From positions 771,503 to 835,502 of the forward strand of contig CAVSOL010000002.1 of assembly GCA_963729535.1 (NCBI GenBank): a stretch of 64,000 nt of DNA, in the 5' to 3' direction. Positions within the stretch are counted from its first letter, which is position 1, and each line of letters opens with the position of its first letter. A program made the position numbers and the translations under genes. Positions 50,589-55,406 of the stretch are shown here, one piece after another. Source of the stretch: an uncultured Pseudomonadota bacterium. Lineage in GTDB: Bacteria > Myxococcota_A > Polyangia > Fen-1088. The notes beneath the pieces are model-generated. The model was not told the origin of the DNA. It did not search any database and saw nothing but the letters and a program-made list of their open reading frames with translations.

Positions 50589-51869
50589 CTATTTCGCCGT
50601 CTCGTGCTGTCTGAATGCCACGGCGCCGAAGCTGACGACGCTGGCTTCGTCGATATTCCAGTGTTCGTACGCCAGGCGGCGGCCTCGCGTGCTCGGCACA
50701 GCGCGCAAGAACGTGTAGAGCGGCGACGATCCACACCACTTGAGATCGTCGTCGCCGTTCTCGACGACCAGGTTCCAGAAACCCGCCGCGTCACCCGCGA
50801 CCACCCGATCCAGCCGCGCGTCGTCGCGTTCGGCGACCTCGGCCAGCGGCCCCTCGTAGGCGCGGGCCGCGCGCGCGTCGCCGTAGCGGCGGCCGACGTG
50901 CGCGAAGTCGACGCCCAGCACGAAGCACAGCTTCGACCCTTCGCGCGCCGCGATGTCGCCCAGCTTGTCGATGAACGCCGCGACCGTGTCACTGGCCTCG
51001 GGCGGACGGCGCGCGAGCGGCCCGCCCACGAACGCGCCGCACAGCACGGGCAGGATGCGCACGCGCGGCCCGTAGATGTACTGCAGGAAGACCACCTGGA
51101 ACTCGATCGAGTGCTCGACCGCGTGGCAGTAGTCCTCGACAGCCACCGACCGCCGCGCGCCGGCCGCCAGCTCGTCGACCAGCGCCAGCTCGGTGGGCGC
51201 GACGCCGAACGGCGTGGCGAATGGTTTCCGCGTCAGCCCGAAGCGATCGGGCTCGCCATAATGCGACGTCCCCAGCACGACGAAGATCCGCTCGCCGTCG
51301 CCGGGCGGCAGCGCGCGATACGCCGCGGCGTAGCTGGCGCTTCCCCCCTCCGGGCTGACGTGCGGCGCCGCGATGCCGATCAGCGGCCCGCCACCATTGC
51401 GCTTCTTCGCGGCCGGTTTTGCCGCGTCGAAATATCCGCGCAGCTTGCTGGTCAGCGCGGCGCCATCGTCCGGGTAGCCGCTGCCGGAGTGTGCCGGGGC
51501 GCGCTCGGGTGTCGCCGCGAACTCGCGCTCGCGCGCGCCGCGCATCTCCGCGAAGCGCTGGTCGTCGAGGAAGCCGGCGTCGCGCAAGGCGGTGATGAGA
51601 CGCTTGCTGATATCCGCAACCGCCACCTGCCCTGTCAGCCGCGCGAGCGCCGCGCGCAGGTCGCCTTCATCCTGCTCGCCGTCGAAGCAGCCGAGGCAGC
51701 GGGCGAGGATCGGCGGGATGATCAGCGTCACCGTCGAGTACTGGAACGGATCGCGGATCAGCAGTCCCGGCTGATCCGGGACCGGCGACGGCATCACGTC
51801 GAGGTCGGCGCGCAGGCGCGGCAGGGGGGCTGCCATGAAGCGAGGTCTCCCCTCGCTCATAGCACGCAA
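50589..51869 (-). CDS. MEMO1 / AmmeMemoRadiSam-system-protein-B family protein with an N-terminal extension of about 130 aa
   Basis: 426 aa, intact. Family motifs are IAAPHVSPEGGSASYAAAY, VVLGTSHYG, AVEHSIEFQVVFLQY, GVDFAHVG and KWCGSSPL. The N-terminal part reads ..GLLIRDPFQYSTVTLIIPPILARCLGCFDGEQDEGDLRAALARLTG..LITALRDAGFLD. Confidence 0.8.
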   Translation of the reverse strand: MRAMSEGRPRFMAAPLPRLRADLDVMPSPVPDQPGLLIRDPFQYSTVTLIIPPILARCLGCFDGEQDEGDLRAALARLTGQVAVADISKRLITALRDAGFLDDQRFAEMRGAREREFAATPERAPAHSGSGYPDDGAALTSKLRGYFDAAKPAAKKRNGGGPLIGIAAPHVSPEGGSASYAAAYRALPPGDGERIFVVLGTSHYGEPDRFGLTRKPFATPFGVAPTELALVDELAAGARRSVAVEDYCHAVEHSIEFQVVFLQYIYGPRVRILPVLCGAFVGGPLARRPPEASDTVAAFIDKLGDIAAREGSKLCFVLGVDFAHVGRRYGDARAARAYEGPLAEVAERDDARLDRVVAGDAAGFWNLVVENGDDDLKWCGSSPLYTFLRAVPSTRGRRLAYEHWNIDEASVVSFGAVAFRQHETAK

Positions 51870-51884
51870 AGCGCGCCGCGGTAG

Positions 51885-52926: not shown

Positions 52927-53947
52927 TCAGAACCTGAACGCACAGCCCACCGAATCCTTTCCGCCGAAACAGGCCACCGTGCTCGTGGCCGGCGCGCTCT
53001 GCTCGGAGGGCCAGAAGATCGCCGCCAGGACGCCGGTCACGATGGCGGTCGCACCGAGCCCGATCGTGGTGCCCATCGCGAGCGCTGCGCTCAGTGCGTA
53101 GATCTTCGACTCGTTCGTGCACTCGACGATCATGTCGGCCTCCATCGACCGGCACTCGTTGAGCTCCTACTGTCTCTTGCTCCACCACAGCGCGCTGGCG
53201 CCTGCCGACGAGCGCGGCGACCCCGGCCGCGCCCACCAGCCACAGGTGGCCCGAACCGCCGCCTCCGGCGGTGTCTTGCTGGCCGCCGACCAGCGTGGGG
53301 ACGTTGCCGTCCCCTGCCCCGCCGCCCGTCGTATCCGCCGTCGCCGGCGGCGCCGATGCGAGCGCGAGCGTCAGCTCGATGGGCTTCTTTTCACCGCCCA
53401 CGACGTCGACGGTCAGCTGCTTCTCGTTCGGCGAACACGTCGCGCAGCGCACCGACAGCTCGTGACGGCCGAGCGGCAGCAGCACGCCGCCGTCCCCCTC
53501 GAGCACCGCGGGCCTGCCGTCGACGAACACGGACAGGCTCGCCGGGCTCAGCTTCAGCGAAAATTGTCCGACGAACGTCTCGGCGCGCGCGAGCAACGCC
53601 TGCGCGTGCTTGCGCTGGTCGGCGGTCAACGGGCGCCGCTGGTCGCGCAGCGCCGCCGCCAGCGCGCGCGTCGCCTCGACGTAGTCGCGCATCTCGAACG
53701 AGGCCATGCCGATGCCGCGCAGCGTGCGCGCCGTCGGAGACTTCTCGTGCGCAAGCCGGAACAACGCCCGCGCTTCCTCGTAGCGGCCCGCATCATATTC
53801 GGCGACCGCGTCGCCGATCAGCACGGGAACGGCGGTGTTCGCCGCGTCGTCGGACTTGTCGGCCGGCTTGTCCGCGGCCCACCCCGCCGCGGCGACCGCG
53901 GTCACGACCAGCGCCGCGATTGCGGTCACCGCTGTCCTAGAAGTCAT
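52927..53947 (-). CDS. Signal-anchored TPR/PEGA-like protein (frame break near 53200 and an in-frame TAG at 53167..53169 as sequenced)
   Basis: It begins MTSRTAVTAIAALVVTAVAAAGWA. A TPR-like part reads AEYDAGRYEEARALFRLA and a PEGA-like part reads LSVFVDGRPAVLEGDGGVLLPLGRHELSV. After the break the text reads GASALWWSKRQ-TAG-ELNECRSMEADMIVEC..TTIGLGATAIVTGVLAAIFW..ACFGGKDSVGCAFRF (ORF 52927..53145). It is unresolved whether the last 72 aa are the tail of this protein or a separate small gene. Confidence 0.5.
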
Positions 53948-55406
53948 CCACTGATAGCTTTCCGGCGCGGTTCGGCCGGCCAACCGGCTGCGATGTCACT
54001 CGCTGAGGCAGCGTCGGAGCGGCCGCTGCAGCCGCGGTCGCTTCGGCCTTCGTCTGCTCGCGATCGCCGCCGCCGGTGCGGCCATCGCGCTTGCGACTGG
54101 AACGTTTCGAGGAGCTCGCCGTGTCCGAAGGCGGCGCCTCCGCCGGTTCGACCGCACCCGCCGGGTGCTTGACCAGCACGCCTGCCGCCGGCGGCTTGGC
54201 CGCCTCGGGCGCCGCGGGCGCGGGCGCGATCGTCGTCGGGCTGGGTGCCGGCCGCTCCGCGGCCATCGCCGCCGGGATCGAGACCGACGGCCGCGCCACG
54301 TCCGGCACAGGCCGGTTCTGCACCCACAGATAGATGCCGCCTGCCGCCACACCGACCGCGATCGCCCCGACCGCGCCGAGCAGGCGCCGGTCGCGCAGCG
54401 GCGAAAGCGGCGCCGGCTGGATCGCCGGCGTCAGCCGCGGCAGCGCTAGCTTCGTCACCAGACCTTCTGGCGGCGTCTCCATCGCCAGCTTCAGCTCGTC
54501 GCGGCCCACGCTCTCGAGCGCCACGATGAACCCCTGCATGTCCAGGTAACGCTTCTCCAGATCGCGCTCCAGCGCACGGTGGATGACGCTGGCGAGACGG
54601 CGCGGAACATCGGCGCGAAAGCCGACCAGCGGCGGAGGATCGCGCTGCATGATGTCCAGCATCAGGCCCGAGAAGTGCTCGCCGACGAACGGCGGCCGGC
54701 CCGCGAGCATCTCGTAGAACACGACGCCCAGCGAATAGATGTCGATGCGGTGATCCGCACCCTTGCCCGACCGCACCTGCTCGGGCGCCATGTACTCCGG
54801 CGTGCCCACGACGTTGCCCGACAGCGTGATGTCGCCCGTCGTCGCCGCGTCCGCGACGGTCAGCTTCGACACGCCGAAGTCCAGCACCTTGCAGTCCCTG
54901 ATCGAACCGTCGGCGTCCAGGCACAGGAAGATGTTGTCGGGCTTGAGGTCGCGGTGAATGACGCCGTGGGCGTGCGCCGCCGCCACGCCACGCATCGCGG
55001 GCAGGATGATCGCCACCGCCTCGACGAACGCCATCTGGCCGACGCGCGACATGCGCTCGTGCAACGTCTCGCCGCCCAGCAGCTCCATCACGATGCACGC
55101 CGAGCCATGGTGCTCGACGACGTCGAAGATGGTCACGACGTTGGGGTGATTGATGCGGCCAGCGGCCAGCGCCTCGCGCCGGAACCGCGCCAGCACCTCG
55201 GTGCTGGCCGCCAGGGCGGGGAGGATCCACTTCAGAGCAACGCGACGGTCGGTGCGGATGTTGATCGCGGCGTACACCTCCGCCATGCCGCCGGCGCCGA
55301 GCAGGCGTTCTATCCGGTACTTGTCCGCGATGACCTCGCCTACGGCGAGCGTCTGCGTCGCCGGCTCTTCGGCCGCGCCGTTCCCCTCCTTCGTTTGCAA
55401 CCCCAT
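53937..55406 (-). CDS. Membrane-anchored Hanks-type Ser/Thr protein kinase
   Basis: 489 aa, intact. It has LGAGGMAEVY, VALK, HRDLKPDNIF, DFGVS and GTPEYMAPE, plus the TM segment LLGAVGAIAVGVAAGGIYLWV and a low-complexity tail. The stop lies 11 nt inside the next gene. Confidence 0.93.
   Translation of the reverse strand: MGLQTKEGNGAAEEPATQTLAVGEVIADKYRIERLLGAGGMAEVYAAINIRTDRRVALKWILPALAASTEVLARFRREALAAGRINHPNVVTIFDVVEHHGSACIVMELLGGETLHERMSRVGQMAFVEAVAIILPAMRGVAAAHAHGVIHRDLKPDNIFLCLDADGSIRDCKVLDFGVSKLTVADAATTGDITLSGNVVGTPEYMAPEQVRSGKGADHRIDIYSLGVVFYEMLAGRPPFVGEHFSGLMLDIMQRDPPPLVGFRADVPRRLASVIHRALERDLEKRYLDMQGFIVALESVGRDELKLAMETPPEGLVTKLALPRLTPAIQPAPLSPLRDRRLLGAVGAIAVGVAAGGIYLWVQNRPVPDVARPSVSIPAAMAAERPAPSPTTIAPAPAAPEAAKPPAAGVLVKHPAGAVEPAEAPPSDTASSSKRSSRKRDGRTGGGDREQTKAEATAAAAAAPTLPQRVTSQPVGRPNRAGKLSVDDF

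Follow-up and report, generated by a model that had tools for sequence, protein, structure and literature searches.

We analysed a minus-strand gene cluster in a 64,000-nucleotide stretch of DNA from an uncultured Polyangia bacterium (contig CAVSOL010000002.1 of assembly GCA_963729535.1, positions 771,503 to 835,502 of the forward strand; hereafter the window), and conclude that it is probably a lineage-specific juxtaposition of two independently conserved, likely co-transcribed units and not one functional module. The first unit comprises three genes, which encode a Hanks-type Ser/Thr kinase, an exported protein with a tetratricopeptide repeat (TPR)-like core (g2) and a lipoprotein with a lamin tail domain (LTD), and would constitute a three-protein envelope receptor-kinase cassette. 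The second unit is the gene of a long-form Memo protein, predicted to be cytoplasmic, which in its modelled structure combines a Memo domain of the LigB-type metal-site fold with a domain resembling PqqD and the recognition element (RRE) of peptides that are synthesized on ribosomes and modified after translation (RiPPs). The trio and the Memo gene are regarded as separate evolutionary units because each occurs without the other outside the clade of the window, the one soil-bacterial lineage in which they lie side by side.

Organization of the cluster

Five co-directional genes with tight spacing, encoding the kinase, g2, the LTD lipoprotein, Memo and a GH8 protein, lie on the minus strand at 48.9–55.4 kb of the window, which has a G+C content of ~70%. 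Their features are as follows, in window positions:

53937..55406 (-), Hanks-type Ser/Thr kinase, 489 aa, intact open reading frame (ORF), Pkinase 163.2 bits
54546-55319 (-), kinase domain, aa 30-287, Pkinase match
54318-54383 (-), single hydrophobic helix of the kinase, aa 342-363, from hydropathy
53940..53969 (-), C-terminal peptide of the kinase, RAGKLSVDDF-COOH, the last codons of which overlap the g2 ATG at 53947
52927..53947 (-), g2, membrane protein of ~340 aa with a TPR-like core, from a borderline TPR_2 match and the family alignment; +1 insertion at 53209 and TAG at 53169-53167
51885..52943 (-), LTD lipoprotein, start at ATG 52922 or GTG 52943; +1 insertions at 52910, 52492 and 52365
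~51888-52391 (-), lamin-tail-like domain of the LTD lipoprotein, PF00932
50589..51836 (-), long-form Memo protein, 415 aa, intact ORF, PF01875 and TIGR04336
51501-51836 (-), RRE/PqqD-like domain of the Memo protein, aa 1-112, from the modelled fold
50619-51503 (-), Memo domain, aa 112-406, PF01875
48921..50506 (-), GH8 lipoprotein with lipobox, Gly-rich linker and catalytic domain, PF01270; +1 insertions at 49966 and 49896

The kinase stop lies 11 nt inside g2, which starts at ATG 53947, and orthologs show the identical overlap. The Memo stop (50589) is followed by the GH8 ATG (50506) after 82 nt. A search for terminator-like sites on the minus strand of the cluster gave none, and a promoter scan of the window was uninformative at 70% GC. 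A preliminary description of this stretch, made from its sequence, had reported the first four genes as nearly contiguous; their positions and strand, the 11-nt overlap and the 82-nt gap before GH8 were correct, but the frames of g2, LTD and GH8 are broken (see below). The Memo start most likely is ATG 51836 (MAAPLPRL), as favoured by the aligned N-termini of 31 homologs, and not the TTG at 51869 given there; the LTD–Memo gap is therefore 48 nt and not 15.

The trio and the Memo gene are conserved separately

About 120 related loci were compared. Outward from Memo, a profile scan with one genome per species yielded 78 loci, and three more (L001-L003) were obtained by exact protein look-up; outward from g2, a family of 160 proteins was followed, and a metagenome scan added 32 loci. 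In close relatives, in which Memo is 72-87% identical or g2 is 57-100% identical to the L001 ortholog, the order is TonB receptor, then kinase–g2–LTD–Memo–GH8, then M23–recN–nadK–rpsU–prmA–rsmE, and the five-gene order recurs in L001-L005, L070, L086, L092 and L099. Since a housekeeping block of ~15 kb is syntenic in this clade anyway, the adjacency of the trio and Memo there reflects relatedness rather than function.

Among the 78 genome loci with a long-form Memo gene, the trio adjoins it in only three (L004, L005 and L070), besides L001-L003. Other Polyangia, with Memo 65-70% identical, carry before the Memo gene either msrA on the opposite strand together with a different 550-aa kinase, or the TonB receptor directly, and keep GH8 and the housekeeping block beside Memo. 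At ~50 Acidobacteriota loci (Memo 44-59% identical) none of the window's neighbour genes is present. GH8 thus pairs with the Memo gene only within Polyangia, and no neighbour family is common to more than 15 of 80 Memo loci.

The trio, in turn, recurs without Memo or GH8 in distant relatives with g2 39–53% identical to the query ortholog and in unrelated contexts (P0376, P0364/L085, P0380, P0345/L087, L103, L105 and L106). In the contexts with g2 47-53% identical, the kinase (with the 11-nt overlap where coordinates are known), g2 and an LTD-type lipoprotein are followed by an unrelated gene, often on the other strand. In 19 of the metagenome loci g2 has a kinase gene upstream on its own strand, and in 10 with enough flank an LTD gene lies downstream; Memo and GH8 follow the trio only in L086, L092 and L099 and are absent in L085, L087, L103, L105 and L106. 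Indeed, the trio stands without Memo at every locus with g2 ≤53% identical and sufficient flank. Its neighbours in other lineages, which include a PMT_2 glycosyltransferase, an epimerase, a UbiA-type prenyltransferase and a large Cys-rich lipoprotein, loosely fit an envelope or glycan theme. Together, these data confirm the gene-neighbourhood conservation that the preliminary description had proposed to check, but only in close relatives; the coupling of Memo to the kinase and LTD genes claimed there dissolves in distant lineages. Of the undescribed envelope module suggested for the four genes, a kinase module remains, consisting of three genes and excluding Memo.

The large Cys-rich repeat lipoprotein (1357-1742 aa, motif IKNSDETDIDCGGHCG) is encoded beside the trio at L105:8025-12098, L085:67-5295 and L103:9946-12966 and has no homolog in the window; it may be a facultative fourth partner of the trio. 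In other Polyangia (L082:4627-8251 and L083:1322-4946), msrA lies on the opposite strand between a 550-aa kinase+TPR gene and the Memo gene, and in the window's relatives L003 and L086 it is found a few genes further upstream, past the TonB receptor. A candidate "conserved gene upstream of Memo" proved to be a shadow of msrA on the other strand and was rejected. ORF-based clustering of neighbours was likewise discarded, as it returned at high GC "families" of Arg-rich antisense shadows (clusters 8, 14, 25 and 41).

A candidate envelope receptor-kinase cassette

The kinase matches Pkinase (PF00069) with 163.2 bits against a cut-off of 31.7, and its translation shows the VALK, HRDLKPDN, DFG and APE catalytic motifs, in agreement with its earlier identification as a Hanks-type kinase. 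Hydropathy predicts a cytoplasmic catalytic domain and one helix (aa 342-363) with basic residues before it, followed by a variable Pro/Ala-rich tail of ~125 aa. All of the 20 kinases read at trio loci end in R-A-G-[KR]-[LI]-[ST]-[VI]-[DE]-[DE]-F*, the codons of which vary synonymously. The motif is also kept in L103, L105 and L106, where the g2 start is called 33-36 nt downstream and no overlap exists. Being invariant despite synonymous changes and the lost gene overlap, the C-terminal peptide itself is under selection. At L105:5860-5905 the overlap of g2 with the kinase stop is lost, but the ancestral ATGACTTCTAG remains and starts a mini-ORF of 15 codons; the TGA of this mini-ORF shares nucleotides with the new start codon of g2 (ATGA), an arrangement that may relay translational coupling. 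The PknB_PASTA_kin model gave 269 bits on the kinase against a cut-off of 450, with the kinase domain alone contributing. In the PADLOC anti-phage models the kinase was matched only by generic Ser/Thr-kinase models (PD-T4-6 and others), and g2, LTD and Memo had no match, which places none of them in a known defence system.

The second protein, g2, has a signal peptide and, in alignment A4, a nearly invariant core, AVAEYDAGRYEEARALFR…PTARTLRGIGMASFELRDYVEA, which lies at the TPR_2 cut-off: the window g2 fragment scored 27.0 bits (cut-off 27) and full-length versions 24.2-26.0 bits. Many of the 160 proteins of its family carry a precomputed PF07719. Beyond the core, g2 has a region rich in beta structure and two hydrophobic segments rich in Gly and Ala; three Cys pairs are conserved, and the protein ends in CAFRF. 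Since g2 has a signal peptide, its TPR-like core would reach the periplasm. The label "PEGA-like" previously given to this protein finds no support in Pfam, where PEGA (PF08308) matched neither an intact g2 ortholog at E ≤ 5 nor the reconstructed window g2 at E ≤ 0.1.

In the third protein, a lipobox (LFAAVGC) is followed by a Gly-rich linker, of 130-200 aa across the family and ~150 aa in the window copy, and the C-terminus is formed by a lamin-tail-like domain. The isolated window domain scored 21.9 bits with PF00932, below the gathering cut-off of 34.3. Orthologs fall on both sides of this cut-off, with L003 (35.0 bits), L085 (35.5) and L105 (35.2) above it, and L001 (26.9), L086 (25.7) and L087 (28.0) below it. 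The full-length reconstructed protein had no Pfam match because of the Gly-rich linker, while the isolated domain does match. Judged from these profile scores, the lamin tail assignment of the preliminary description holds at the family level and not from the window copy alone. PDB sequence profiles retrieved nothing for either g2 or the LTD domain.

By analogy to TPR–EEVD recognition, we propose that the exported TPR core of g2 captures the tethered acidic-aromatic C-terminal peptide of the kinase. The LTD lipoprotein may act as a ligand-binding co-sensor, and the kinase–g2–LTD assembly would then control kinase output. More speculatively, a Ser/Thr-containing loop between the two hydrophobic segments of g2 could be a phospho-acceptor. 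No paper describing the trio was found in the literature, in which searches on LTD, kinase and myxobacteria and on MkapB gave nothing usable, and the trio appears to be undescribed.

A long-form Memo protein with an RRE-like N-terminal domain

The Memo protein belongs to the Memo family, with 100.6 bits for PF01875 (cut-off 27) and 84 bits for TIGR04336. Although it is only ~20% identical to MEMO1, the MEMO1 motifs APH, SH, EHS, D..H and CG are aligned in its Memo domain, and the His/His/Cys metal ligands are kept. An AlphaFold2 model of the whole protein built from 31 homologs had a predicted local distance difference test (pLDDT) value of 95, and Foldseek retrieved with it MEMO1 (7m8h/7kq8/3bcz; E ~1e-18, TM 0.81) as the top PDB match, followed by LigB-type extradiol dioxygenases. 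The profile score, the MEMO1-like fold and the metal-site motifs thus bear out the earlier MEMO assignment. The protein has no signal peptide and, from its sequence, is most likely cytoplasmic.

The N-terminal 112 aa, modelled alone (pLDDT 91), form three strands followed by three helices (b-b-b-a-a-a). Their top PDB matches in Foldseek are all of the RRE type, namely ThcOx (E 0.046), PqqD (E 0.17, TM 0.57), TbiB1 (TM 0.6), MibB and MadB. This domain, alone or in 23 homologs, matched nothing in Pfam (including PqqD, PF05402) or NCBIfam, and PDB sequence profiles gave nothing for it. An exhaustive search found it in only 430 representative proteins, and where the full-length protein (~400-480 aa) was at hand, it is nearly always N-terminal. 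RRE–Memo fusions are among the new RRE fusions of the 2025 RRE-Finder update, in which they are represented by the HMM RREFam044 "Memo_RRE" and named candidate new RiPP enzymes, with no function, substrate or genomic context given (PMC12710340). We infer that the present Memo protein belongs to RREFam044. The RRE–Memo family is therefore already catalogued, and the trio appears to be the undescribed part of the locus.

The Memo gene stands outside the AmmeMemoRadiSam set, as noted before, since neither an AMMECR1 nor a radical SAM partner adjoins it. LRGCIG, which we take to be the AMMECR1 motif, is absent from the window and from all 119 loci in a search confined to these loci. No dedicated radical SAM gene lies by Memo in any locus, where just scattered housekeeping-type CxxxCxxC ORFs were seen; the three-gene system was thus not found at the loci examined, notwithstanding the 84 bits for TIGR04336. 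Within 900 nt of the Memo gene, no conserved small ORF was detected at 80 loci, all matches being shadows or of low complexity. Most probably the Memo protein is a cytoplasmic metalloenzyme directed at a peptide or protein, with the gene of this substrate lying elsewhere.

Frame breaks in g2, LTD and GH8

The sequence as given does not encode g2, LTD or GH8 intact, and carries in them six +1-nt insertions and one TAG in total. Three-frame translation, plots of the G+C content at third codon positions (GC3) and tblastn with intact orthologs showed that each gene passes through more than one frame. Lesion positions were set by frameshift-aware protein-to-DNA alignment, in favour of which the GC3 frame plots, unreliable within Gly-rich linkers, were dropped. 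In g2, first annotated with 1021 nt and hence with no multiple of 3, the insertion at 53209 is accompanied by an in-frame TAG (53169-53167) where orthologs carry Gln. In the LTD gene, frame 0 from ATG 52922 stops at 52394-52392; the first-annotated ORF nevertheless begins and ends in one frame because the three insertions (52910, 52492 and 52365) restore it. GH8 has two insertions (49966 and 49896).

DNA alignment showed +1 insertions also in recN (~46033) and the TonB receptor (~58041), and in tblastn a 365-aa gene (~58440-58457) and a PLD-like gene (~59690-59700) are split between frames, presumably through a break. In the 19 kb that could be compared with a relative, the density is ~1 lesion per 2 kb, and every lesion placed at the DNA level or by frameshift-aware alignment is a +1 insertion, some within short homopolymers. 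As the lesions are window-wide, insertion-only and also present in recN and the TonB receptor, the frame breaks are very probably assembly errors and not locus-specific decay, which points to an insertion-biased error profile across the whole contig. In a contig with ~1 insertion error per 2 kb gene calls will break.

Alternative explanations

That the frame breaks are real, with g2, the LTD lipoprotein and GH8 decaying as pseudogenes and only the kinase and Memo functional, is improbable. Decay would fit the packing of six insertions and a nonsense codon, the latter a substitution, into ~3.5 kb, where the neighbouring ORFs of the kinase and Memo escaped damage; however, recN and the TonB receptor carry +1 insertions too, two more genes are split between frames, the insertion-only pattern suits a sequencing-error profile better than natural decay, and outside the lesions the broken genes retain their full coding signal and amino-acid conservation. 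A single integrated system for envelope signalling or modification, built from the kinase, g2, LTD and Memo (GH8 included or not) and with Memo acting downstream of the kinase, is in our view very improbable. Such a system would explain the common strand, the overlaps and short gaps without a terminator-like site, and the five-gene order kept in the relatives listed above. It would not explain why the trio lacks Memo in seven of seven more distant contexts with enough flank and Memo lacks the trio at more than 60 loci; moreover, the clade shares ~15 kb of housekeeping genes (recN, nadK, rpsU, prmA and rsmE), indicative of relatedness, and Memo is predicted to be cytoplasmic while the other proteins are in the envelope. 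That Memo marks a local RiPP-like biosynthetic cluster, in which the RRE binds a nearby precursor and the neighbours tailor or export it, is most improbable. The RRE-like fold of its N-terminal domain and the naming of RRE–Memo fusions as candidate new RiPP enzymes (PMC12710340) speak for such a cluster, but no conserved small ORF lies ≤900 nt from Memo at the 80 loci, no neighbours are conserved across phyla, and the kinase, lipoproteins and glycanase found here are not typical RiPP genes.

The juxtaposition of two independent units thus remains the reading we prefer, and several points weigh against it or its parts. The five genes are tightly packed in the clade (overlaps or gaps ≤82 nt) and their order holds down to ~58% g2 identity, so that co-transcription and some lineage-specific functional link are possible there. 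The Pfam TPR scores of g2 are borderline, at the cut-off, and the proposed TPR–peptide docking is drawn from analogy. The RRE assignment comes from weak Foldseek E-values (0.05-0.6), with no Pfam PqqD match, and among the lesions the TAG in g2 stands apart as a substitution. A more far-reaching version of the two-unit reading, which we hold to be unlikely, takes the trio as a new receptor-kinase complex, in which RAGKLSVDDF is a tail ligand captured by the TPR protein and LTD serves as the signal arm, and the RRE–Memo protein as a leader-guided metalloenzyme modifying a conserved peptide or protein whose gene lies elsewhere in the genomes of Polyangia and Acidobacteriota.

Flanking genes and other features of the window

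Upstream of the kinase lies a divergent gene with TonB_C plus a TonB-dependent receptor, downstream of GH8 a convergent M23 peptidase gene, and the rest of the window is ordinary core chromosome (ptsI, pyrG, comEC, ffh and prfA/B). GH8 matches PF01270 (Glyco_hydro_8) with 159.8 bits, which places it in this family; the BcsZ equivalog NF008305 scored 62.6 against a cut-off of 299, and the protein is not a BcsZ equivalog. In the divergent gene (55524-58257, plus strand), TonB_C (PF03544, aa 62-136) is fused N-terminally to the barrel of a TonB-dependent receptor (PF00593); this fusion, kept in L001, L003 and L086, unusually joins a receptor to the C-terminal domain of the energiser. A second Hanks kinase is encoded 6 kb away (~61277-62629, minus strand), with a V4R domain and a weak TPR match in its L001 and L086 orthologs; adjacency of a kinase to any gene is unsurprising here because kinase density is high.

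A 62-aa ORF between the NAD kinase gene and rpsU (44286-44471, plus strand) is 87-97% identical across Polyangia loci, far better conserved than the neighbouring genes, and has no Pfam family on record. Gly-rich linkers follow the signal peptide or lipobox in the M23 peptidase (47435-47830), GH8 (50100-50440) and the LTD protein (52400-52870), and many further Gly-rich stretches occur at 23.3-30 kb, where an ORF of 656 aa (28319-30289, minus strand) has no Pfam match. The Gly-rich linker looks like a lineage-wide design for tethering envelope proteins.

Implications and comparison with known systems

The eukaryote-like Memo protein beside a eukaryote-like kinase invites a reading that our analysis corrects: their neighbourhood reflects shared ancestry of the loci and not a conserved pathway, and the present data lend no support to the parallel that the preliminary description drew with the action of eukaryotic MEMO1 downstream of receptor kinases. 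The trio would be a compact, portable kinase cassette with a testable recognition motif, in which both the C-terminal peptide and the TPR core are invariant, and offers a way into envelope sensing by the orphan Hanks kinases that abound in soil bacteria of the Polyangia type. For the RRE–Memo fusion, the comparison supplies a context, that of a stand-alone gene kept across two phyla, in Polyangia and in Acidobacteriota; since it has no local precursor, a housekeeping-type peptide or protein substrate is argued for over a classical RiPP cluster.

Myxobacterial kinases are known to have TPR proteins as partners. The TPR domains of Hop bind the EEVD of Hsp70/Hsp90, and PEX5–PTS1 is likewise a case of a C-terminal peptide recognized by a TPR domain. 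Similar to both, the trio would pair a C-terminal peptide, invariant, acidic/aromatic and carried on a flexible tail, with a TPR-like core that is likewise invariant. In the trio, peptide and core are predicted on the same, periplasmic, side, and the core is encoded by the translationally coupled next gene; the likeness to Hop–EEVD and PEX5–PTS1 is purely an analogy, and the TPR Pfam scores are borderline. Single-pass membrane Ser/Thr kinases with dedicated accessory proteins also call to mind the bacterial Hanks receptor kinases with extracytoplasmic sensor parts (such as PknB-PASTA and the PknD beta-propeller) and the multikinase-associated proteins (Mkaps) of Myxococcus (PMC3427377). Different from PknB and PknD, the putative sensor parts of the trio are separate polypeptides, the exported TPR protein and the LTD lipoprotein, and the kinase ectodomain is a disordered tail with a conserved end peptide, with no sequence relation to PASTA.

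The window Memo protein shares fold, profile family and metal-site motifs with human MEMO1 (PDB 3BCZ and 7KQ8) and TIGR04336, "AmmeMemoRadiSam system protein B". Unlike these, it has an extra N-terminal RRE-like domain of ~112 aa and no AMMECR1 or radical SAM gene nearby, and, unlike for MEMO1, there is no evidence of phosphotyrosine or receptor-kinase coupling. With RREFam044 "Memo_RRE" (PMC12710340) it shares the architecture of a fold, here RRE-like, fused to PF01875; no precursor-like ORF adjoins it. Finally, bacterial PF00932 proteins include extracellular nucleases such as ExeM (PMC6085458). The LTD of the trio, some orthologs of which reach the Pfam cut-off, resembles them in being a predicted extracytoplasmic Ig-like domain; different from ExeM, it has no catalytic domain and stands alone on a lipoprotein tether rich in Gly, and its gene always follows those of the kinase and g2.

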